A stretch of DNA of 64,000 nucleotides from Candidatus Omnitrophota bacterium (lineage in GTDB: Bacteria > Omnitrophota > Gorgyraeia > Ghiorseimicrobiales > Ghiorseimicrobiaceae): contig JAUXSB010000014.1 in assembly GCA_030681595.1 (NCBI GenBank), positions 109,071 to 173,070 on the forward strand, written 5' to 3'. This document shows positions 9,761-27,955 of this stretch, piece after piece. The notes beneath the pieces were generated by a model that worked only from the letters and a program-made list of their open reading frames with translations, was not told the origin of the DNA and did no database searches. Position 1 is the stretch's first letter, and each line of letters begins with the position of its first letter. A program made the translations under genes and the position numbers.

Positions 9761-9853
9761 AATGAAGTTATAAGTTAGAAGTTATAAGTGCTAAGTGAAA
9801 AATAACAAAGAAAAATTTATAATTTGTCACTCATAACTTCTAACTTCCTAAAA

Positions 9854-10378
9854 CTATTCTCCCAGCTGATACCTGGAAAACCTTCTGACGACAATATTCT
9901 CGCCGGTCTTGGCAATAACCGACGTCAGATAATCGCTGATAGTCAGGCTTGCGTCCTTAATAAAAGCCTGCTCTAACAAACAGGCGTGCTTATAAAAATC
10001 ATTGCCTTCCTTACCTTCCTTGGCAATAACCTCCTGCGGCACTTCCTCTTTTTTAATATATTTGGGATTCATTGCCGCAATCTGCATCGCTACATCCTTG
10101 ACAAATCTCTGGAATTCCTCGTTTCTGGCGACAAAGTCTGTCTCACAATTTATCTCAACCAATACTCCGATTTTACCGCCGGAATGAACATAAGATTCAA
10201 CTTTACCCTGGCGCGCTGCCCGGTCAGCCTTCTTTGCCGCAAGCTGCATGCCTCTTTTTTTTAATATCTCAATCGCCGCCTTCATGTCTCCCTTGGCTTC
10301 TTCCAGCGCTTTTTTGCACTCGATTACGCCACAGGAAGTAAGCTGGCGCAGTTCTTTTACAGATTCATTGAAATTCAT
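9854..10378 (-). CDS. tsf: Elongation factor Ts (short form)
   Basis: 174 aa. LRQLTSCGVIECKKALEEA...TDFVARNEEF. Confidence 0.88.
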   Translation of the reverse strand: MNFNESVKELRQLTSCGVIECKKALEEAKGDMKAAIEILKKRGMQLAAKKADRAARQGKVESYVHSGGKIGVLVEINCETDFVARNEEFQRFVKDVAMQIAAMNPKYIKKEEVPQEVIAKEGKEGNDFYKHACLLEQAFIKDASLTISDYLTSVIAKTGENIVVRRFSRYQLGE

Positions 10379-11456: not shown

Positions 11457-13253
11457 TTACTCCGGAACGTTTTGAAGGTTGTATAAATTACGATAGAGGC
11501 CGTTTTGGGCGAGCAATTCTTCGTGGCGTCCGCATTCGGCTATCCTGCCTTCACTTAAAACAATAATCTTAGAGGCATCTTTAATCGTAGACATTCTATG
11601 GGCAACCATAAAGACAGCGCGCCCGCGCATTAAAATATCCAAAGCTTCCTGCACAATCTTTTCCGCGCGGGAGTCTAACTGCGAAGTCGCCTCATCCAAA
11701 AGCAGGATCGGCGGATTTTTTAAGATAGCGCGGGCTATGGCAAGGCGCTGCTTTTCCCCTCCGGAAAGCTTAAAGCCGCGGTCTCCGATAACGGTATCAT
11801 AACCTTGGGGCATCTCAAGGATAAAATCGTGGGCAAAAGCCTTCTTTGCCGCCGCCTCAATTTCCTCCTGCGTCACATTAAGATTGCCATAGGCAATGTT
11901 TGCCTTTACCGTATCATTAAACAAGATAGTTTCCTGGGTAACTATAGCGATATTTTTTCTTAGCGAGGACAGCGAGGCCGTCTTTATGTCTATGCCGTCA
12001 ATGAGGATTCGCCCCTCTTGTGGGTCGTAAAAACGCAAGGTTAAATCCAAAAGCGTGCTTTTACCCGAACCTGAAGGGCCGACTATCGCCAAAACCTCAC
12101 CGGCCTTCACTTTCAGGTTAATATTTTTTAAAATAATATTATCCTCGTATTTAAAAGAAATATTTTCAAACTCTATGCCTTTTTTTACCGCCGCTAGCTC
12201 TACGGCGCGCGGGATTTCTCTTACTGACGGCACCGTATCTAAAACTTCATAAATGCGCGTGTTGGCGGCCAATGCCTGCTGCTGAAGGCTATTTACCTGG
12301 CTGAGTTTCTTAAACGGCCGAATTGTAGATAGAATCGCGCCCATAAGCAAAGCGAATACGCCGAAAGAAAGGCTCCCCTTAATTACCTCCTGGCCCACCC
12401 AGTAAAAAATAAACAACCCGGCAAACGCACCGATAAGCTCGGTGCCGGGCCCTAAAACCAGCGTTCGCTTAGCAGATTTCATCGTAAGTTTATAATAATC
12501 CCTGTTTTGGCGGTTAAACCTGCCTATTTCATAATCTTCCATAGAAAACGCCTTGACAATGCGCACGCCGGTAATGGTCTCAATCAAAAGCGAGTTGATA
12601 TCCGCCACTTTTTCCTGGGTACGGGTGGAGATTTTGCGCAGTTTCTTGCCGACTTTGACAATCGGGAAAACAATCAACGGCACAGCTATGAAAGAGATAA
12701 AGGCAAACTTCCAATAGACAAAAAAAGCTAAAACCACATAGACTACCACCTGCATTGACTGATATAACAAGTCATATAAACCGTAAGAAAGGGCGTTTTC
12801 CACCACTTTTACGTCGTTGGTAATCCGCGAGATAAGCTCGCCGCTGCGTTTTCCGCTATAATAATCCAAAGATAAAGCCTGCATCTTGGCATAAAGTTTT
12901 TTGCGGATATCCATAATGATTTTCTGCCCGACATCGGTCATTAAATACGACTGCAGAAAGCTAAAGCCCGCCTTTAAGATAAGCATAACCAAGACTACCG
13001 GCAACATTAACTTAAGCAAAGAAGCCGGAGGTAAACTATTAATAGAAGCGATAAAATTTTCCAGGAAAAGCGGGAGCTTCCCCGGCAGGATTATCTGCTT
13101 ATTTGTCATAACCTTATCTGCCAGAGGCACAAGCATTCCTAACGAAACTCCGTCAAAGACCGCGGAAACCGCCATCGCCACTACCGCAAGGCCAAATAAC
13201 CCTGCATGCGGCTTAAGAAAAACCAATAATCTCTTATATTCTTTACTAAGCAT
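11457..13253 (-). CDS. ABC transporter, fused permease and ATPase (MsbA-like lipid/multidrug exporter)
   Basis: 598 aa with six TM helices, Walker A GPSGSGKST, and signature LSGGEKQRLAIARA. Confidence 0.9.
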   Translation of the reverse strand: MLSKEYKRLLVFLKPHAGLFGLAVVAMAVSAVFDGVSLGMLVPLADKVMTNKQIILPGKLPLFLENFIASINSLPPASLLKLMLPVVLVMLILKAGFSFLQSYLMTDVGQKIIMDIRKKLYAKMQALSLDYYSGKRSGELISRITNDVKVVENALSYGLYDLLYQSMQVVVYVVLAFFVYWKFAFISFIAVPLIVFPIVKVGKKLRKISTRTQEKVADINSLLIETITGVRIVKAFSMEDYEIGRFNRQNRDYYKLTMKSAKRTLVLGPGTELIGAFAGLFIFYWVGQEVIKGSLSFGVFALLMGAILSTIRPFKKLSQVNSLQQQALAANTRIYEVLDTVPSVREIPRAVELAAVKKGIEFENISFKYEDNIILKNINLKVKAGEVLAIVGPSGSGKSTLLDLTLRFYDPQEGRILIDGIDIKTASLSSLRKNIAIVTQETILFNDTVKANIAYGNLNVTQEEIEAAAKKAFAHDFILEMPQGYDTVIGDRGFKLSGGEKQRLAIARAILKNPPILLLDEATSQLDSRAEKIVQEALDILMRGRAVFMVAHRMSTIKDASKIIVLSEGRIAECGRHEELLAQNGLYRNLYNLQNVPE

Positions 13254-13589: not shown

Positions 13590-13625
13590 AAGGGCTGGAC
13601 ATCCAAGCCCGGCCCTTTTCGAAAA
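13590..13625. terminator. Bidirectional stem-loop with T-runs on both strands, downstream of the Met-rich protein gene
   Basis: AAAAGGGCTGGACATCCAAGCCCGGCCCTTTT. Confidence 0.5.
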
Positions 13626-13643
13626 TAACTTGATAAACTGCTA

Positions 13644-13904
13644 TTATTTTTCCGCTTCAGGCGCTTGCGGGGCAGTAACCGGACATACAGATAAACCCGA
13701 CTTACCCATCATACCTTTTCCACCCATCATCATGCCTTTTTGGCCCATCATAGCTTTACCGGGATCCATGCACGGATACCCTTTAGACATACACATGTGT
13801 TTGCAAATCGCTCCGCCAATCAACATAATTACTATAACAGTCAGTAAAATGTTTGTGTATAAAGGTGACGAAAAAAACTCGCAGCATTTCTTTTCATTAG
13901 CCAT
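13644..13904 (-). CDS. Small (86 aa) Cys- and Met/Gly-rich membrane protein of unknown function
   Basis: Strong ribosome-binding site AAGGAGGTG before the ATG. One TM helix, then CKHMCMSKGYPCMDPGKAMMGQKGMMMGGKGMMGKSG. Confidence 0.6.
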   Translation of the reverse strand: MANEKKCCEFFSSPLYTNILLTVIVIMLIGGAICKHMCMSKGYPCMDPGKAMMGQKGMMMGGKGMMGKSGLSVCPVTAPQAPEAEK

Positions 13905-14019
13905 AAAACACCTCCTTTAATTGCGTGTATTATAGCACTCTTATTTAAACAAGTAAAGGATAGTTAAATAACTATAGAGCGGGATTACTTAATAAGCATA
14001 CTTTAATGCAATTTGGCTT

Positions 14020-14688
14020 TTATATAGGCTTTACAACGCAGGCAAATTCTGGATATTTTGAATCGCTTAGCTGGCCAAACGTAATTAAATTTAAAAGTTT
14101 AAGTTCCCAGCTATTATTAATTGCCGGGCCGATACCTTCTATTGTTACTATTTCATAACCCAATGCCTTAAACATACCTTCTATGCTTTTCTGAGTAAAG
14201 AATCGCAAGTGTGATTTGTCTAAAATTCCGGAATCCTGGTATTTCCATTGTTTTTTTATAAGTAGTTCTTTTAATATTTTAAAATATCTCATATTCGGAA
14301 TAGCGCAAACAATTATCCCTTCTTTAGTAAGTTTGGCTTTAATTTTATTAAGCACAGTAAACGGATCTGCCAGATGCTCTAACGAATCATTGAAAACAAC
14401 ACAATCAAAATAAGTATCCGGGAGCTCGCCCAACAAATTATAAATATCCCCGACAAACAACTTATCTATTTTATTTCTCGCCAAAGACGCGGCTTTTTCG
14501 TCTATTTCAATGCCCCAGACTTCCGCGTTTAATTTTTGTTTTATCTCTTCGCCGAATAACCCCGCGCCGCAACCCGCGTCCAATATCTTTCTTGCGGTTT
14601 TCGGAATATAGCCGAGCATTTCTGGACGTTTTCTTAAGTAATAATCATCGGGCTTAGCGGATAAATCGAAAATTTTTTCGCTATGCAT
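14020..14688 (-). CDS. Class I SAM-dependent methyltransferase (Methyltransf_11/12-like)
   Basis: ILDAGCGAGLFG is motif I. 222 aa. Confidence 0.8.
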   Translation of the reverse strand: MHSEKIFDLSAKPDDYYLRKRPEMLGYIPKTARKILDAGCGAGLFGEEIKQKLNAEVWGIEIDEKAASLARNKIDKLFVGDIYNLLGELPDTYFDCVVFNDSLEHLADPFTVLNKIKAKLTKEGIIVCAIPNMRYFKILKELLIKKQWKYQDSGILDKSHLRFFTQKSIEGMFKALGYEIVTIEGIGPAINNSWELKLLNLITFGQLSDSKYPEFACVVKPI

Positions 14689-14720
14689 AATTAATCCTTA
14701 CGCTGGCACAAGCTCTAAAC
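14678..14720. repeat. 43-bp direct repeat, copy A (38/43 identical to 17161-17203). It overlaps the first codons of the 14020-14688 gene.
   Basis: TTCGCTATGCATAATTAATCCTTACGCTGGCACAAGCTCTAAA aligned against TTCGCTATACATAATTAATCATTGCGCTGGCACAAACCCTAAA. Confidence 0.85.
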
Positions 14721-14786
14721 GATAACCCATGCTGCCTGCGAAATTTTTCCATTTTTTTGTTTCTGTTTCTTGACTTTTTAACGCGA

Positions 14787-15461
14787 TCATTTCTTTAATC
14801 TACTCCGAATAAAATAGAAAGCCGATGGTTTCGTATATTTTTTGATATTTTTTACATTTAAAACGCACTGCCAAAAAGTAAGGGGGTCCGCTTTAAAAAC
14901 TTCCATAATCTCTAATCCATTGTCTTCAATCATAGGCTGAAAATCCTTGGTGGTTGTGGCTGGTTCACATTCCTGGAATAAAACCGAACCATCGGGTTTA
15001 AGAAATTTTTTAATATCTCTATAAAATTTCTTATGGACCGTAAGATAAGGATCGAAATTCCTAATATTCTCCCGATATTTTTTTTCATCCGAAGGCCAAT
15101 GCGGAGGATTACTGACAACTAAATCCCACTGCCCAGTTATCGGGATAGAGTCAAGACAATCAGATAAATAAACGGCTGCTTTATCTTCTATCTTATTATC
15201 TTTGATGGTTTTTTTACAACATTCTACGGCATCAGGATTAACATCAGCTACGGTCAAACGATTACAAAGGCCGTGCGCTAACATAGAAAAGCCTATAAAA
15301 CCGGGCCCAGCGCAATATTCAAAAACATGGTCGACTTTTCCGAATCTATCCCTAACCATACGAATAAACTCTTGGCCAAAATTTCTGCCGCCGCCTTCCA
15401 GATAAGGCAAAAAACTTACAGTGATATTTTTATAACGCACTTTTTTAAAAATTTTACCCAT
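14787..15461 (-). CDS. Small amino-methyltransferase with an NPPH motif (RsmC/HemK-like 'MTase small' fold). Substrate unknown.
   Basis: Motif I is EYCAGPGFIG; motif IV is VVSNPPHW. 224 aa. Confidence 0.7.
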   Translation of the reverse strand: MGKIFKKVRYKNITVSFLPYLEGGGRNFGQEFIRMVRDRFGKVDHVFEYCAGPGFIGFSMLAHGLCNRLTVADVNPDAVECCKKTIKDNKIEDKAAVYLSDCLDSIPITGQWDLVVSNPPHWPSDEKKYRENIRNFDPYLTVHKKFYRDIKKFLKPDGSVLFQECEPATTTKDFQPMIEDNGLEIMEVFKADPLTFWQCVLNVKNIKKYTKPSAFYFIRSRLKK

Positions 15462-15709
15462 TTATCTTTCCACCGTAAAATACCGCATATTCAAAAGGTT
15501 AGTTAAAATCTATGGCTTCATAATACTTATATTATAAAACAATTAACCATTTCCCAACGGGTGATTGACGACATGAGGAGATTATATCAATAGCTTAAAA
15601 ACTTTCAATATTTATTTTGTAATTTATGTATCCGGTGTTACGTAAACCGTCTACTTTACTTTGTATCCCCTGATTTTGCTATTAACATTTGGGCCGAATA
15701 TTTTTTTAT

Positions 15710-16219
15710 CTATATATCTGTATCAATTTTTCTAATCTTTAATATCTTGCACAGGCGCAGAAGGGTCTCTAAAGTCACGTTCTTTTTCCCTTCTTCTATC
15801 TTAGAAATATCCGGCTGTTTCATGCCCGTATTAAACGCTAATTCTTTTTGGCTTAGGCCCATTTTAATCCTTGCTTCCTTTATCAAGGCGCCTATCTTTA
15901 TAAACGAAGCGGGAGGCTCGCCTTTTAGGCTTTTATTTTTAATATTAGACCCCTCTAAAAGCTGCTCATAAATAGTTTCCCACCAATCCCTAAAATCGGA
16001 TTCACGCGAAAGTTTTACCCAATAAGATTTAATCCCGGGCCAAGCCTTAATAAATTCTTCCTTAGAGATTAAAGAAAATACCTCTTTAGGCTGGTCACAG
16101 CGGGAAAGCAAAGTTACCATGCGTTCACTAAATTTAGGGTGCTGCGGGCTCTTTAAGATATGCTTAGCTTCTTTTAACGCCCTATCGTTCAAATTCCAGA
16201 AATACTTCGCGATATTCAT
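15710..16219 (-). CDS. Protein with an unknown N-terminal domain and a C-terminal XRE-type helix-turn-helix. Candidate antitoxin or regulator.
   Basis: MGLSQKELAFNTGMKQPDISKIEEGKKNVTLETLLRLCKIL sits at the C-terminus. The start overlaps the upstream gene by 4 nt (ATGA). Confidence 0.65.
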   Translation of the reverse strand: MNIAKYFWNLNDRALKEAKHILKSPQHPKFSERMVTLLSRCDQPKEVFSLISKEEFIKAWPGIKSYWVKLSRESDFRDWWETIYEQLLEGSNIKNKSLKGEPPASFIKIGALIKEARIKMGLSQKELAFNTGMKQPDISKIEEGKKNVTLETLLRLCKILKIRKIDTDI

Positions 16220-16929
16220 GCTATGGCCCCTTTTGCGAATTCCTTTATTTCATTCTCCAAATAATTAATCATCTCTTTAGAGTTAAATTTTTTATCATAT
16301 ATATCCAAGTCCAAGAGGCCGAGTTTCATTTCTTGGCGGGAAAAACTGCGGTACCAATGAATCATCCCCCGCTGTAAATGCCTCGGCACGGACTTTAAAA
16401 ACAAATGCAACGGCTTTATTTTTTTTGAAAGCATATAAATATCAAACGCGTCGCGCGCCTCTCGCCGGCCTCCCTCAATTGTTTCCCGGCCTATCTCATC
16501 TGTCGTTGGCTTTACTCCCGCGACAGCAGTAATTTTTTGCAGATATATGCCTTCTGCGCTGTAAACCCGCACTCCTTTAATCCGTTTAATACCGGGTTTG
16601 GTAAAAATAACATCTTCCACAAAGTCAATTTTTAACGGCGCGCGCGAACCCTTTACCGGCACGATATAAAAATGCACGCGCGCCCTGCCCCTAATTGTAA
16701 ACTCAGATTGCAATTTTATTTTATTTTTAATCCGTTTCTCAAATGCCGCGATTAGCCTCTCTATTTCTTTTACGTCATATTTAGGAGAAAAAAAGTCTAA
16801 ATCCCTGGAAAAGCGGTGATGCAGATAATACAGCTCAAGGGCAGTGCCTCCGGCAAGAGCAAAATCCTCCGCCTCTTTTGCAAAAACATCAAGAATTACG
16901 CCTTGCGCTTTTCTGATTTTCAAGTCCAT
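16216..16929 (-). CDS. DUF1814 / AbiEii-MenT family nucleotidyltransferase (type IV toxin-like)
   Basis: GGTALELYYLHHRFSRDLDFF carries the family hallmarks GGTAL and RxSxDLDF. 237 aa. Confidence 0.8.
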   Translation of the reverse strand: MDLKIRKAQGVILDVFAKEAEDFALAGGTALELYYLHHRFSRDLDFFSPKYDVKEIERLIAAFEKRIKNKIKLQSEFTIRGRARVHFYIVPVKGSRAPLKIDFVEDVIFTKPGIKRIKGVRVYSAEGIYLQKITAVAGVKPTTDEIGRETIEGGRREARDAFDIYMLSKKIKPLHLFLKSVPRHLQRGMIHWYRSFSRQEMKLGLLDLDIYDKKFNSKEMINYLENEIKEFAKGAIA

Positions 16930-16945
16930 TTTATCTCCAGAAAAA

Positions 16946-17001
16946 ATAGGTTATAACCTATATCCAATATAGATTATAACCTATAGAAACCGTTTTGTCA
17001 A
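16946..17001 (-). promoter_or_regulatory. Sigma70-consensus promoter (TTGACA-N17-TATAAT on the minus strand) with two 16-bp palindromic operators.
   Basis: Minus strand reads TTGACAaaacggtttctataggtTATAATctat...ATAGGTTATAACCTATtttttctGGAGataaaATG. Operators: ATAGATTATAACCTAT, overlapping the -10, and ATAGGTTATAACCTAT, between +1 and the ribosome-binding site. Confidence 0.6.
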
Positions 17002-17160
17002 ATAAAATCTGCCAACCGGCGCTTTGATTTTATTTGATGCCCCGCCATAAAGCGTTGGCGGACAGACGTAAATACTTTTACGGCGCAAATAATATTTAAT
17101 TTTTCCGCATAACAAATAACACAAAACTATAAATATGTTACGACACTGATTATTTGATTA

Positions 17161-17203
17161 TTCGCTATACATAATTAATCATTGCGCTGGCACAAACCCT
17201 AAA
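17161..17203. repeat. 43-bp direct repeat, copy B (partner of 14678-14720)
   Basis: See copy A. It includes a pseudo-start, ATGTATAGCGAATAA, mirroring the MHSEK start of the 14020-14688 gene. Confidence 0.85.
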
Positions 17204-17234
17204 AAATTACACAGGTTATTCTATGTGTAAGAAA

Positions 17235-17696
17235 TTAATTTGTACCACCTGTTTCTTGACCAGACTTAATCTTCGTAACCTTATCGTCTTTATCAAAATC
17301 AATCGTTATCTGCAGTTGTGAACTACTAAAACCCTCAACAGGTGTTCCGATTATCTCCCATCCACCGAAAGTTAACACATCCATTACCCCGTGTCCTATT
17401 GCTCTGCCCGCACTTGGTGAGTTACCTCTTTGAATTTCAAAAATTTCTTTTCTACCTGTATCAGTAGTTAATGTTTGCGCTGGTTGACCTAATAATAATA
17501 TAACTTCATCTCTTGGTTGCCCTACATGTAACGACCCTAAATCTACTTCTCTTTTTCCGTGTAATGCCATCATTACTGAACAGCCGGAAAATACAAATAT
17601 TAAACAACACACCAATACGAAAAAACCAATTCCTTCCTTCCTAAACATGCTCCCTCCTTTTTTGTTAATTATAGCGATGAAATCCTGTATAATCAA
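17235..17696 (-). CDS. Putative lipoprotein (probable start at the internal Met, about 17648)
   Basis: MFRKEGIGFFVLVCCLIFVFSGC is a signal peptide with a lipobox-like FSGC. Confidence 0.55.
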   Translation of the reverse strand: MIIQDFIAIINKKGGSMFRKEGIGFFVLVCCLIFVFSGCSVMMALHGKREVDLGSLHVGQPRDEVILLLGQPAQTLTTDTGRKEIFEIQRGNSPSAGRAIGHGVMDVLTFGGWEIIGTPVEGFSSSQLQITIDFDKDDKVTKIKSGQETGGTN

Positions 17697-17768
17697 TAAG
17701 AAGTATTGTGTTCATAGAATCCGCTGCAGGCGCATAGATTGTATCAGGTTTATTTATCCCTTCCATTT

Positions 17769-18503
17769 TTATTTTTTCCTACTGATAACTACTAAATGCC
17801 TTCCATAAAGTAATTCATCGGACAATAAAATTTTTGCGATTCTATCATATGATATATTGCCTTTTTTCCTTGCTCTTTTACATTTCGACAATAATTGTAA
17901 ATATATAATGATTTTTAAGGGAAATGTCCATAATTTTAATCCCGGATAATAAGAAGTTGTGGCAACTTTCTCAATCTCAAAGCCATTATTTTTCAAAAAA
18001 TATTCCAATTCATGCATTCGCAAAGGACAAATATGTAAATACGCGGCCGCGTCACCACCTACGCTTTGAGCTTGTTCTAATAACGGCTCACGAAAATATT
18101 CCCATGCTCCTTCGAAAAGAAAACGCATCCGCGACTTGATGTTAAGGATATTAGGAGTTGTCAAAATAAAAACTCCTCCCGGCTTAAGCACTCTGTAGGC
18201 TTTTCTAATTATTGATTGCGGATTTTCTAAATGCTCGATAAGCTCAAGGCAGGACACATAATCAAAATAGTCATCATCATACGGCAGCGCTTCTTTATTA
18301 AAATCAATTTCCTTGAAATTAACTGTCCGGGGAAATGCAAAATATTTCCCCAAAACATCGCAAGCATAAGATTGAAAACCTTCCCTTGCCAACATGTTTG
18401 GCAGATCGCCCTTTCCTGTGCCAATATCTAAAAATTTACCTCTCTTCTCCGTTCTTAATAGCTCAAATACTCTCTCTATCGGGTTAGCTAATTTTTTCTT
18501 CAT
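17769..18503 (-). CDS. Class I SAM-dependent methyltransferase
   Basis: FLDIGTGKGDL is motif I. 244 aa. Confidence 0.8.
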   Translation of the reverse strand: MKKKLANPIERVFELLRTEKRGKFLDIGTGKGDLPNMLAREGFQSYACDVLGKYFAFPRTVNFKEIDFNKEALPYDDDYFDYVSCLELIEHLENPQSIIRKAYRVLKPGGVFILTTPNILNIKSRMRFLFEGAWEYFREPLLEQAQSVGGDAAAYLHICPLRMHELEYFLKNNGFEIEKVATTSYYPGLKLWTFPLKIIIYLQLLSKCKRARKKGNISYDRIAKILLSDELLYGRHLVVISRKK

Positions 18504-18628
18504 TTTTAATTTCCTTTTTTGTTCCGTTAAGTGTATAATCGCCCATTTATTTTGTAATTTGTTTATGCATATAGAGCTACGTAAACCGTCTACTCTACCT
18601 AGCTACTCTACTGCTCTATTTAACACCT

Positions 18629-19432
18629 TCAAACCAAAACCTTATCTCTATACCTCAACACACTCGCCAAAGTCAATGGATTAGGATCCTCTATATCCAC
18701 CGAGCTCCAGGCGTCCATCATATAGCGTTCAATGTAGGCGTAGGGCAAGAAGCCATAGCCAGCCCTTCCCCATTTATTAGACCATGAATTTTTGAATTTA
18801 ACGAGTTTTTCTTTATCATCGTAGCCGACCGGACAGATGGCGTGGCCGCCTAAGGAAGATTCGCTTTTCTTTGGCATTGGAACAATGCCGGTTTTAGTCT
18901 TCATCATACCGCCAAAGACTTCCACGCCGATAACGCAGGGGCCTTTGGTGGAAAGTGACAGACATAATTCATTTAGGTCTAGGATACGCGCGTAGGTGAT
19001 AATGCGGAATTTTTTGGCGTTCACAACAGCGCCCTTTTCGGGCTTGGATTTTTTACGCGGAATATATGGCCAGAATTTTTCAAGACAGACGCCTTTTTTC
19101 GTAAGCACTTTCATCGCCGCGCGGATTGTTGTGCCTTCTGCCTTAGGCATGCCGTCAATCAATTTGGCTTCGCTATAAAGAAAACGTGGGGAAAGCTCTA
19201 CCGGCTTTTGGTAATCAAGGAGCTCCTGATATTCTTTCATGCCGACTGTCGCAGCAAAACCAACACAAACCCCCTCATCCCCTTGATCCCGAACCGGAGA
19301 CATATTTTTCGTCCAGTCAATTCTTTTGGGAAGCTTAACTACCGGCAGATAAGCGCGCATTAGATAATCGCGCGCGTCTAATTTATCTTTTATACAACCT
19401 AAACCTCGAAAAATCACTCTGATCCCTTTCAC
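18629..19432 (-). CDS. Papain-family (C1) cysteine peptidase, cytoplasmic (no signal peptide)
   Basis: QGDEGVCVGFAA is the catalytic Cys region; GGHAICPVGY is the His region; NSWSNKWGRAGYGF is the Asn/Trp region. Confidence 0.8.
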   Translation of the reverse strand: MKGIRVIFRGLGCIKDKLDARDYLMRAYLPVVKLPKRIDWTKNMSPVRDQGDEGVCVGFAATVGMKEYQELLDYQKPVELSPRFLYSEAKLIDGMPKAEGTTIRAAMKVLTKKGVCLEKFWPYIPRKKSKPEKGAVVNAKKFRIITYARILDLNELCLSLSTKGPCVIGVEVFGGMMKTKTGIVPMPKKSESSLGGHAICPVGYDDKEKLVKFKNSWSNKWGRAGYGFLPYAYIERYMMDAWSSVDIEDPNPLTLASVLRYRDKVLV

Positions 19433-20510: not shown

Positions 20511-21446
20511 TTGCTATCATTTGACCATATGGAAAAAATAAGGTTAGCAGTTATTGGCGCAGGCAGGCTTGGCTCAATCCACTGCCGCATTTATAAAGAA
20601 CTTGAAAATGTGGAATTGGCTGCGGTCTGCGACATTGACAAGGCGCGCGCAGAAGTTGCCGCCAAAACTTATGATACTGCCGCCTCTTTTGACTACCGTT
20701 ACCTCTTAAACCAAGTTGACGCGGTAAGTATCGCCGCCCCCACCCAGCTGCATTATGAAATCGGCCGTTACTTCTTATCACACGGAATTCATTCCCTAAT
20801 TGAAAAACCCTTTACCACAGATTTAAAACAGGCAGACGCCTTAATTAAACTTGCGCGCAAAAATAAGCTCATTCTGCAGGTAGGCCACGTTGAAAGGTTT
20901 AACTCGGCATTTGCCGCGGCAAAAAAAATTATCCAAAACCCCCAGTTTATTGAATGCCACCGCTTAAGCCCATTCCCTAACCGTTCATTGGATATCGGAG
21001 CGGTCTTAGACATCATGATCCACGACATAGACATTGTCTTAGGACTGGTAAATTCCCCGCTTAAAAAAGTAGAGTCCGTAGGTATTCCGGTTTTAACCCA
21101 GTTTGAGGATATTGCCAATGCGCGGTTTACATTTAAAAACGGCTGTGTCGCCAATTTGACCGCAAGCCGCGTATCGGATGAAGTAATGCGTAAAATCCGC
21201 ATTTTCCAAAAGAATACCTATATATCGCTGGATTACAAAGAAGCACAGGCCTCGGTTTACCGCAAAGACGGGCTGAAAATCACTCAAGAAAACCTGCCGA
21301 TTGAAAAAGAAGAACCCCTCAAAAAAGAACTCGCCTCATTTGTGGATTGCGTCATCAATCGTAAAGAGCCGCTCGTTTCCGGCGAAGTTGCCCGCGAGGC
21401 GCTTGCCGTTGCTTTAAAAATCCAGAAACAAATATGGAACAAGTAA
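20511..21446 (+). CDS. Gfo/Idh/MocA-family NAD(P)-dependent oxidoreductase, possibly a GnnA-like UDP-GlcNAc 3-dehydrogenase. The true start may be at M7.
   Basis: KIRLAVIGAGRLGSIH is an N-terminal Rossmann motif. It overlaps lpxB by 13 nt. Confidence 0.75.
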   Translation: MLSFDHMEKIRLAVIGAGRLGSIHCRIYKELENVELAAVCDIDKARAEVAAKTYDTAASFDYRYLLNQVDAVSIAAPTQLHYEIGRYFLSHGIHSLIEKPFTTDLKQADALIKLARKNKLILQVGHVERFNSAFAAAKKIIQNPQFIECHRLSPFPNRSLDIGAVLDIMIHDIDIVLGLVNSPLKKVESVGIPVLTQFEDIANARFTFKNGCVANLTASRVSDEVMRKIRIFQKNTYISLDYKEAQASVYRKDGLKITQENLPIEKEEPLKKELASFVDCVINRKEPLVSGEVAREALAVALKIQKQIWNK

Positions 21447-22597
21447 GCTCAAAAATAAAAACTCAAAAGTCAAAACATGTCTTTATTGTCTGCGGCGAAC
21501 CTTCCGGCGACCTAAACGCCGGGCTTTTAGCCGAAGCGTTAAAGAAACTTAACCCTGACATCAAAATCAGCGGTGTGGGCGGCGCATTATTACAAAAGAG
21601 CGGCGCTGAAATATTCTACGATATCGCCGGGCTTTCGGTAATGGGCTTATTTGACGTCCTAAAAAAACTCCCTAAATTCTTTGCCCTTAAAAAACTCATC
21701 TTAGAAAAAATAAGTTCTGAAAAACCCGATGCTATAATTTTGGTAGATTTCTCCGGCTTTAACCTGCGCCTTGCCAAAACAATTAACAAAAAAATCCCGG
21801 TAATCTATTATGTTAGCCCACAGGTCTGGGCATCCAGAAAAGGCCGCGTTGAGACAATAAAAAAATATATCTCCAAAATGATTGTCATTTTTAAATTTGA
21901 AGAGGAATTTTATAAAAAATATGGCATAGACGCAGAATTTGTCGGCCATCCCCTATTGGATATCGTAAAACCGGCTCAAGAAAAAAATGAATTCTTAAAA
22001 CAATGCGGGTTCTCTGAAAATAAAACCACTATTGCCCTTCTGCCCGGCTCACGAGCCGCCGAGATAAAAAACATTCTTCCTGTAATGGCAAAAACCGCCG
22101 AATTAATCAGCGAAAAACTTAAAAATGCGCAATTCGTCATTGCCCGCTCGCCAAACGTTGAGCTAAATATTTATAAAGAAATCATTGATGGGTTTAAAAT
22201 AAATATTACTATTATTGAAGGCAGGACTTACGACTGCTTAAATATCGCAGATTTCGCGCTTGTCTGCTCTGGAACAGCCACGCTTGAAACAGCAATTATG
22301 CAGAAACCATTTGTGATAATTTACAAAATGAACCTCTTAAACTACCTGCTCTATCGCCCGCAGGTAAAACTCCCCTATATCGGAATGGTAAACATTGTAG
22401 CGGGTAAAAAAATCATCCCCGAATTTATCCAGTTTGGCGCAAAACCGGAAATCATTGCCGAAGCCGTCTTAGGCATTTTACGTGATGAAACAAAACTCTC
22501 CCAAATGAAAAAGAACCTAAGCGAAATTTCTTCTCTCCTGGGCCCCTCCAACGCCGCAACATCCGCGGCGAAGATAATTTTGAATATTATTTCATAA
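21434..22597 (+). CDS. lpxB: Lipid-A-disaccharide synthase
   Basis: 387 aa. The N-terminus FIVCGEPSGDLNAGLL and the length are typical. Confidence 0.9.
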   Translation: MEQVSSKIKTQKSKHVFIVCGEPSGDLNAGLLAEALKKLNPDIKISGVGGALLQKSGAEIFYDIAGLSVMGLFDVLKKLPKFFALKKLILEKISSEKPDAIILVDFSGFNLRLAKTINKKIPVIYYVSPQVWASRKGRVETIKKYISKMIVIFKFEEEFYKKYGIDAEFVGHPLLDIVKPAQEKNEFLKQCGFSENKTTIALLPGSRAAEIKNILPVMAKTAELISEKLKNAQFVIARSPNVELNIYKEIIDGFKINITIIEGRTYDCLNIADFALVCSGTATLETAIMQKPFVIIYKMNLLNYLLYRPQVKLPYIGMVNIVAGKKIIPEFIQFGAKPEIIAEAVLGILRDETKLSQMKKNLSEISSLLGPSNAATSAAKIILNIIS

Positions 22598-27842: not shown

Positions 27843-27909
27843 GAATTGAACCCCACACCCAGTTACTACGAAGAAACGCTACGAAGTATCTGGGTGTGGG
27901 GTAAATTCA
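27843..27909. repeat. Palindromic intergenic repeat element (REP/MITE-like family 1), copy 1
   Basis: GAATTGAACCCCACACCCAG...CTGGGTGTGGGGTAAATTCA. It is about 85% identical to 28487-28553. Confidence 0.8.
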
Positions 27910-27955
27910 GACAGATAACTTACATTCGCTTCCACTCTGTAAGTTATGTCTTTAT

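Follow-up and report, generated by a model that had tools for sequence, protein, structure and literature searches.

A putative two-gene toxin-antitoxin cassette with a DUF1814/AbiEii-MenT nucleotidyltransferase and an XRE-type partner in a variable locus of an Omnitrophota genome

A 64,000-nucleotide stretch of a metagenome-assembled Candidatus Omnitrophota genome (GenBank assembly GCA_030681595.1, contig JAUXSB010000014.1, positions 109,071 to 173,070; hereafter the window) contains an islet of about 2.5 kb in which three open reading frames (ORFs) on the minus strand, like every gene of the region, lie between two direct repeats. They encode a nucleotidyltransferase (NTase) of the DUF1814/AbiEii-MenT type, a partner protein with a helix-turn-helix (HTH) domain, and a methyltransferase with an NPPH motif. 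A preliminary description of the sequence had read the three genes as one three-component module resembling a toxin-antitoxin (TA) system, brought in by an insertion that duplicated its target. The locus therefore raises the question of which of these genes belong together and what the repeats record. Comparison of the window with loci fetched from other genomes (numbered L001 onwards; the Logan contig L001 is 100% identical to the window and represents the same sequence) leads us to the view that the islet probably consists of a compact two-gene cassette of the TA type, spanning approximately 17001-15710 on the minus strand, together with an unrelated methyltransferase gene and a repeat, R1, that was duplicated by recombination.

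The nucleotidyltransferase-partner cassette and its conservation

Profile, motifs and fold all place the NTase firmly in the DUF1814/AbiEii-MenT family. Its sequence scores 73.5 bits against the Pfam AbiEii family (PF08843), for which the cut-off is 22.5 (E 3e-20), matches 20 AbiEii models in PADLOC, and carries the stretches LAGGTAL and RFSRDLDF. Four motifs have been described for DUF1814 proteins, of which I and II read hGG...DhD, III is a Lys among hydrophobic residues and IV reads +DxxD (Dy 2014, PMC3985639). All four are found here (G27/G28, D43-L-D45, K132 and R159-D160-x-x-D163), each invariant or at least 90% conserved in an alignment of 40 homologues, and the catalytic motifs recognized in the preliminary description are thereby borne out. 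Invariant residues in the alignment are G27, S41, D43, K100, K132, R159, D160 and D163; D45 and D102 are kept in at least 90% of the homologues. The protein has a bi-lobed, MenT-like fold, and in structure it comes closest to JHP933 and three MenT toxins, over 160-211 residues. Toxicity of MenT3 requires D80, K189 and D211, and its phospho-acceptor is S78 (PMC7450476); that of AbiEii is T65 (bioRxiv 10.64898/2026.01.19.700257). S41-x-D43 of the NTase shows the same pattern as the phospho-acceptor sites S78-x-D80 of MenT3 and T65-x-D67 of AbiEii, a correspondence judged from the motif pattern and not from residue-level superposition.

The partner gene starts within the end of the NTase gene, its ATG overlapping the TGA in the ATGA at 16219-16216. 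Residues 1-91 of the partner make up a Trp-rich helical domain (hereafter the N-domain), residues 92-100 a disordered linker and residues ~104-163 an XRE-type HTH, which Pfam HTH_3 matches at residues 113-162. Matching no Pfam or PHROG family, the N-domain is marked by KYFW, LSRC, WP and SDFRDWWETIYEQ, and its residues W8, E17, F30, F56, W60 and W80 do not vary even among homologues as distant as 26-36% identity. When 1.84 billion representative proteins were searched exhaustively with phmmer, the domain was returned in just 63 clusters (at 50% identity), most of them of proteins 160-180 amino acids long. HTH_3 directly follows the N-domain in 8 of the 9 members that were scanned, which are mostly unusually long ones, and the remaining member is without any Pfam match. 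In every locus examined, the N-domain is encoded directly downstream of an AbiEii-family gene. Neither Pfam nor PADLOC returned a match of the partner to the AbiEi family, the only matches being to XRE-type HTH families; the earlier observation that its C-terminal HTH departs from the AbiEi/COG5340 architecture thus holds. An XRE-type partner with this N-domain is not described in the literature searched, and the combination of a Trp-rich N-domain with a C-terminal XRE HTH appears to be a new antitoxin architecture.

The pair is preceded by a predicted promoter that matches the sigma-70 consensus throughout and is overlaid by two palindromic, operator-like sites (Table 1), with the sequences TATAGGTTATAATCTATA and TATAGRTTATAACCTATA. 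The palindrome at 16967-16984 overlaps the -10 box, and the one at 16946-16963 covers the predicted transcription start. Both are nearly invariant across five loci in which the cassette DNA is 67-78% identical to that of the window; the distant homologous pair of L033 has a different palindrome. The two palindromes are also complementary to each other, forming an 18-bp stem followed by a T run, which a pattern scan flags as a terminator-like site. Transcription running on from the lipoprotein gene upstream might be halted at this stem, which would insulate the cassette.

The pair recurs in seven other genomic contexts as a cassette of about 1.3 kb. It lies after fabF in L002, after pyrF in L007, and between the genes dxs and pyruvate:ferredoxin oxidoreductase both in L003 and in L004-L006; it is found inside a cluster of glycosyltransferase and methyltransferase genes in L035-L036, beside response-regulator, Fic and kinase genes in L037-L040, and with no notable neighbours recorded in L033-L034. 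The window and the seven other contexts all have the NTase gene in first position, with the partner gene overlapping its end by 4 nucleotides, even where the two proteins are only 33% and 30% identical to those of the window, which supports the reading of the HTH protein as a translationally coupled partner. DNA homology between the pair loci starts, depending on the locus, at 17008-16985, in the region of the -35 box, and ends at about the stop codon of the partner gene. Homology searches gave 570 matches for the NTase family and 367 for the partner family; most of the best matches are 60-87% identical and come from Omnitrophota and Nitrospirota assemblies and from metagenomes. No relative of the NTase was found among the IMG/VR viral contigs, and on sequenced plasmids the NTase had matches of 30-33% only, the partner none. 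The cassette is not flanked by direct repeats at five other loci, and the repeats near it in L007 and L033 appear to be local repetitive elements. Apparent defects of the NTase gene in L037 and L039 were traced to runs of N in the assemblies and are not mutations.

Two of these contexts have neighbours that deserve mention in their own right. In L033 (2279-5442, GCA_964595465.1) and L034, another pair, this one in canonical order (a 275-residue protein without a Pfam match and then a 268-residue AbiEii protein), begins 285 nucleotides beyond the distant toxin-first pair, so that the toxin-first and canonical arrangements stand side by side in one genome. In L007 (6325-8960), the cassette adjoins a gene with an EcoRII-C domain and one for a 621-residue protein for which Pfam lists LexA DNA-binding, Peptidase_S24 and N6_N4 methyltransferase domains, an unusual neighbour resembling a restriction-modification system.

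We also considered that the NTase might not be a toxin and might instead be some other regulated enzyme, such as an antibiotic or small-molecule nucleotidyltransferase, with the HTH protein as its regulator. Given that its best structural matches are to JHP933 and MenT toxins, and that the DUF1814-specific motifs III and IV and the phospho-acceptor Ser are invariant, we regard this as decidedly improbable. The 4-nucleotide overlap, the consensus promoter under palindromes and the patchy spread through unrelated neighbourhoods at 63-86% identity are moreover typical of a TA cassette.

Table 1. Features of the islet and its surroundings in the window, in order of position.
Feature	Position	Strand	Description
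MsbA-like ATP-binding cassette (ABC) transporter gene	11457-13253		the low-GC stretch lies between this gene and lpxB
Flanking class I S-adenosylmethionine (SAM) methyltransferase	14020-14688	-	222 amino acids; Pfam Methyltransf_23
R1 copy A	14674-14729	.	functional 5' end (-41 to +15) of the methyltransferase gene 14020-14688
NPPH-motif small-domain methyltransferase	14787-15461	-	224 amino acids; Pfam MTS, E 1e-11
R2 copy b	15606-15663	.	~55 nucleotides; ends just upstream of the NPPH methyltransferase promoter
Partner (putative antitoxin and auto-repressor)	15710-16219	-	169 amino acids; overlaps the NTase stop by 4 nucleotides
Toxin-type NTase, DUF1814/AbiEii-MenT	16216-16929	-	237 amino acids
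Two 18-nucleotide palindromic operator-like sites	16946-16984	-	inverted repeat I6, 94% complementary
Promoter of the pair	16973-17001	-	TTGACA-17 nt-TATAAT; 12/12 sigma-70 consensus
R1 copy B	17158-17213	.	decayed duplicate of the same 5' end, just downstream of the lipoprotein gene stop
Flanking small lipoprotein	17235-17648	-	137 amino acids as called; VFSGC lipobox in translation
R2 copy a	18540-18603	.	upstream of the gene for a 244-residue methyltransferase; located where the variable region has its left edge
lpxB	21434-22597		the low-GC stretch lies between this gene and the MsbA-like transporter gene

The neighbouring methyltransferase, the variable slot and the repeats

The NPPH methyltransferase is an independent, separately promoted neighbour of the pair, and the adjacency is coincidental. 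A gap of 248 nucleotides separates its gene from that of the partner, and the promoter of its own that the preliminary description had assigned to it is found at 15608-15581, with an extended TG and 11 of 12 positions matching the sigma-70 consensus. Homologues occur in unrelated surroundings: that of L030 (76% identical) adjoins glmU and prs, and that of L032 (80%) lies between gltB and gltD, beside other small genes resembling TA genes. DNA homology of both loci to the window is confined to the methyltransferase ORF, and neither has an AbiEii gene near the homologue. The pair is missing at all three methyltransferase loci (L030, L031 and L032), and the pair's seven further contexts likewise all lack the methyltransferase. 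The proposal that the methyltransferase acts with the pair, as a modification-based antidote or as a partner methylating tRNA or rRNA, draws on the arrangement in the window, where the genes are adjacent, co-directional and enclosed by the repeats. Because the pair and the methyltransferase do not occur together at their other loci, and the latter follows its own promoter after a gap, a three-component system is not supported, and we give it hardly any credence.

As to what the methyltransferase is, all of its NCBIfam matches fall far below the cut-offs. It matches PDB entry 9l4q_A, an unnamed solved structure (E 2e-43), and phrog_35227 (E 7.5e-33); no paper mentioning PDB entry 9L4Q was found in the literature searched. 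Its homologues at 28-33% identity include hypothetical proteins of the T4-like cyanophages S-SSM7 and P-SSM2.

We then asked what occupies the position of the islet in related genomes, using four relatives (L026-L029) obtained by protein search and contig look-ups. A contig scan with the flanking methyltransferase returned no close relative, its best match being 61% identical and from other phyla; orthologues of that protein are 72-87% identical. L026 is the nearest syntenic relative, ~86% identical at the nucleotide level, and aligns with the window from 14693 down to 9001 (the methyltransferase, the MsbA-like ABC transporter, rpsB, tsf, pyrH and frr), across the peptidase C1 gene (19411-18608, with matching ending at 18608), and in the 5' end only of the lipoprotein gene (17699-17566). 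Between these stretches L026 carries ~5 kb of wholly different genes, among which are neither the pair nor the NPPH methyltransferase. The islet is accessory, being absent from this closest syntenic relative, and since the content of the slot is wholly different there, the interval constitutes a hypervariable slot. The neighbourhood comparison suggested in the preliminary description came out divided, with the islet absent from a syntenic locus, and only the pair, not the three genes, travelling together.

The composition of the region agrees with a variable locus: guanine-plus-cytosine (GC) content is 33-38% over most of 13.6-18.7 kb, compared with 41-48% in the flanks. Within the low-GC stretch (13600-18700) lie the cassette, the lipoprotein gene and three genes for methyltransferases, and it seems to be a variable locus devoted to modifying the envelope or glycans. 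A scan of the 14 larger ORFs between 10.4 and 24.7 kb revealed neither an integrase nor a transposase. The islet adjoins no tRNA gene, the only ones in the window being at 8.1-8.5 kb, and Rfam gave no credible match at 13-19 kb.

The direct repeats are real and differ in detail from the 43-bp pair at 38/43 identity first reported. One copy had been placed a base off, with 17162-17204 pairing with 14678-14720 at 37/43, and the full repeat extends over 56 nucleotides. R1 constitutes a single family of two copies, identical at 46/56 positions (82%) and spaced 2484 nucleotides from start to start. Its degenerate core of 26 nucleotides is present exactly twice in the 64 kb of the window, where 100 shuffles gave an expectation of 0. 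ORFs and alignment bear out the earlier account that the repeats bracket three genes and that one copy holds the start of the flanking methyltransferase gene and the other a decayed version of it. Copy A holds the Shine-Dalgarno sequence AAGGA together with the start codon ATG and the opening five codons of the ORF at 14020-14688; in copy B the Shine-Dalgarno sequence reads AATGA, and the frame ATG TAT AGC GAA TAA stops after 4 codons. In L028 and L029 (87% identical), the methyltransferase gene is found with a 94-nucleotide upstream region that includes an R1 of the copy A type, identical to copy A of the window across the aligned repeat, with flanks at 87%. Copy A thus represents the native 5' region of that gene, which is under constraint. 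Homology to these two loci begins 5 nucleotides past the NPPH stop codon; in both of them the neighbouring gene encodes a methyltransferase and is transcribed divergently. Searches with nhmmer of the 40 loci fetched found R1 only at its two sites in the window and at the equivalent positions of L001, L028 and L029.

How, then, did the 5' end come to be duplicated? A target duplication, as proposed in the preliminary description, is right in so far as a duplicated gene 5' end fits insertion or recombination. What does not fit are the missing empty site, the lack of a transposase or an integrase among the scanned ORFs, the lack of inner inverted repeats, and the smaller size of the recurring unit (17001-15720), which falls well short of the interval between the repeats. 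A transposon target-site duplication was rejected: R1 is 56 nucleotides long and only 82% identical, the scanned ORFs include no transposase, and the inner edges of its two copies (near 14730 and 17157) carry no inverted repeat that would pair them. Nor was a remnant of the methyltransferase gene found in 17002-17157.

R1 was probably duplicated when a foreign segment of ~2.5 kb recombined into the low-GC slot between the peptidase C1 gene and the methyltransferase gene. The segment would have brought, in this order, 156 nucleotides of unknown origin, the cassette, the NPPH gene and a methyltransferase 5' region. A likely route is a homologous crossover in or beyond the methyltransferase gene combined with an illegitimate join to the resident allele at its codon 5; copy B would be the dead remnant of that allele. 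Recombination of this kind would explain the diverged copies, the mosaic cargo of two independently distributed units and the lack of a recombinase gene. The 2.5-kb interval could alternatively be a discrete integrative element, with R1 as attL and attR, a recombinase supplied in trans and a replacement 5' end for the target gene on board. Direct repeats that bracket a cargo and overlap a gene start are seen in elements that restore their target gene, 82% identity would suit hybrid att sites, and the cargo is absent from relatives. We nevertheless think such an element unlikely: besides the lack of an integrase or transposase among the scanned ORFs and of inner-edge inverted repeats, the cargo is pieced together from two units, each found independently in other places with far tighter boundaries, R1 has no further copies in the 40 loci fetched, and no second insertion of the 2.5-kb unit is known. 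From the recombination model we infer that the repeats mark an exchange within a variable locus rather than a new mobile element.

A second repeat, R2, which ends shortly before the promoters of unrelated genes, has two copies in the window (Table 1), ~80% identical and with the near-palindrome GTTTACGTAAC and an A/T-rich tail. R2 is also present directly upstream of the cassette promoter in L037-L039 (L037 1411-1466), a finding that weakens the idea of R2 as the scar of two tandem versions of one slot. It may be a dispersed, lineage-specific intergenic element and not a scar left by recombination, perhaps one that binds a regulator or acts as an insulator. Elsewhere in the window, at 27850-27955 on the minus strand, a conserved hairpin motif (GACATAACTTA..GAG.G.AAGCGAA..TAAGTTATCTGTC) is followed by a GC-rich hairpin. 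The motif is also found in L032, where it is repeated 3-4 times in tandem with a unit of ~124 nucleotides (9798-10190), between a gene for an extracytoplasmic function (ECF) sigma factor and a putative anti-sigma gene. Having no credible match in Rfam, it may be an undescribed structured RNA or a regulatory repeat.

Proposed function and relation to known systems

By analogy with MenT3, the NTase would block translation or arrest growth by adding nucleotides to tRNA 3' ends, an activity described in the MenT literature (PMC7450476, PMC10435456). The partner would most likely act at two levels, its XRE HTH binding both palindromes as a dimer to repress the operon and its Trp-rich N-domain contacting and neutralizing the NTase. 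Antitoxin-induced auto-phosphorylation of the toxin has been shown for MenA3/MenT3 and AbiEi/AbiEii (PMC11375011; bioRxiv 10.64898/2026.01.19.700257), and retention of the Ser-x-Asp phospho-acceptor makes such a route conceivable here. Neutralization could occur by partner-induced auto-phosphorylation of Ser41 or by simple sequestration, the two being equally possible. A role of the cassette in phage defence is possible but unsupported; a study of AbiE saw no protection in E. coli (bioRxiv 10.64898/2026.01.19.700257).

Several points weigh against this reading of the islet. Toxicity, the tRNA target, DNA binding, the mode of neutralization and the recombination route are inferred, and the likeness of the NTase to MenT proteins comes from structure and the Pfam profile only, with sequence and profile searches of the PDB matching JHP933 alone. 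For the history of the locus, an empty site, in which the lipoprotein gene is directly followed by the methyltransferase gene, was not found among the relatives L026-L029, and R2 accompanies the pair outside the window.

Comparison with characterized systems places the cassette among DUF1814 toxins and sets its partner apart. The MenT proteins of the MenAT systems of Mycobacterium tuberculosis (MenT1, MenT3/TglT and MenT4) are ~14-16% identical to the NTase, with no sequence-level MenT match in the PDB; the present toxin gene comes first, and its partner, with an XRE HTH and the new N-domain, is not an antitoxin of the MenA type. JHP933 of Helicobacter pylori (PDB 4O8S, 4OK0) is 20-23% identical to the NTase, and its suspected partner gene, jhp0932, lies upstream (PMC7450476). 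With AbiE of Streptococcus agalactiae and Lactococcus, the NTase shares the AbiEii models of Pfam and PADLOC and motifs I-IV. The two inverted repeats covering the promoter also recall abiE autoregulation (PMC3985639), the sites here being operator-like by sequence. However, AbiEi (COG5340) combines an N-terminal winged HTH with a C-terminal antitoxin domain and is encoded upstream, whereas the HTH described here is of XRE type, C-terminal and encoded downstream. The pair is not an AbiE/COG5340-COG2253 system, as both antitoxin type and gene order differ.

Gene order by itself is less unusual than the preliminary description had assumed. SanaTA, SdenTA and RlegTA, obtained by shotgun cloning, are published DUF1814 TA systems with toxin-first names, and RlegA is explicitly encoded downstream of RlegT (bioRxiv 10.64898/2026.01.19.700257). 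Their antitoxins are COG5340-like or distantly so, unlike the N-domain and XRE HTH of the present partner, a distinction that is drawn from their descriptions only. Restriction-modification C proteins and XRE antitoxins of the HipB/HigA type have a single domain or an N-terminal HTH, with neither a Trp-rich N-domain nor a pairing with a DUF1814 NTase. Toxin-first order is thus already known for DUF1814 systems, and it is the partner architecture that appears to be the new part.

A further-reaching interpretation is that the N-domain is a new antitoxin domain dedicated to MenT-like NTases, which would neutralize them in a manner other than the loop-induced auto-phosphorylation of COG5340 antitoxins, and that the pair is a distinct TA family. 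Such a family would have promoter logic like that of controller proteins and so far be known mainly from metagenome-assembled genomes of Omnitrophota and Nitrospirota. We put this forward tentatively, as a possibility about which we have more doubt than conviction.

New toxin-antitoxin pairings are common. MenT/AbiEii toxins are nonetheless of topical interest, owing to their modification of tRNA ends and to the recently reported auto-phosphorylation induced by their antitoxins. The negative results at this locus matter as well, the link to the methyltransferase being coincidental and the repeats probably not constituting a new mobile element. In the literature searched, the antitoxins described for MenT/AbiEii toxins are of the COG5340, COG4861 or MenA types. 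The pairing of such a toxin-type NTase with an unrelated partner offers a natural test of whether auto-phosphorylation can be triggered by any partner or whether other modes of neutralization exist, and the cassette, at 1.3 kb and with a defined promoter and operator-like sites, can be directly synthesized and tested.

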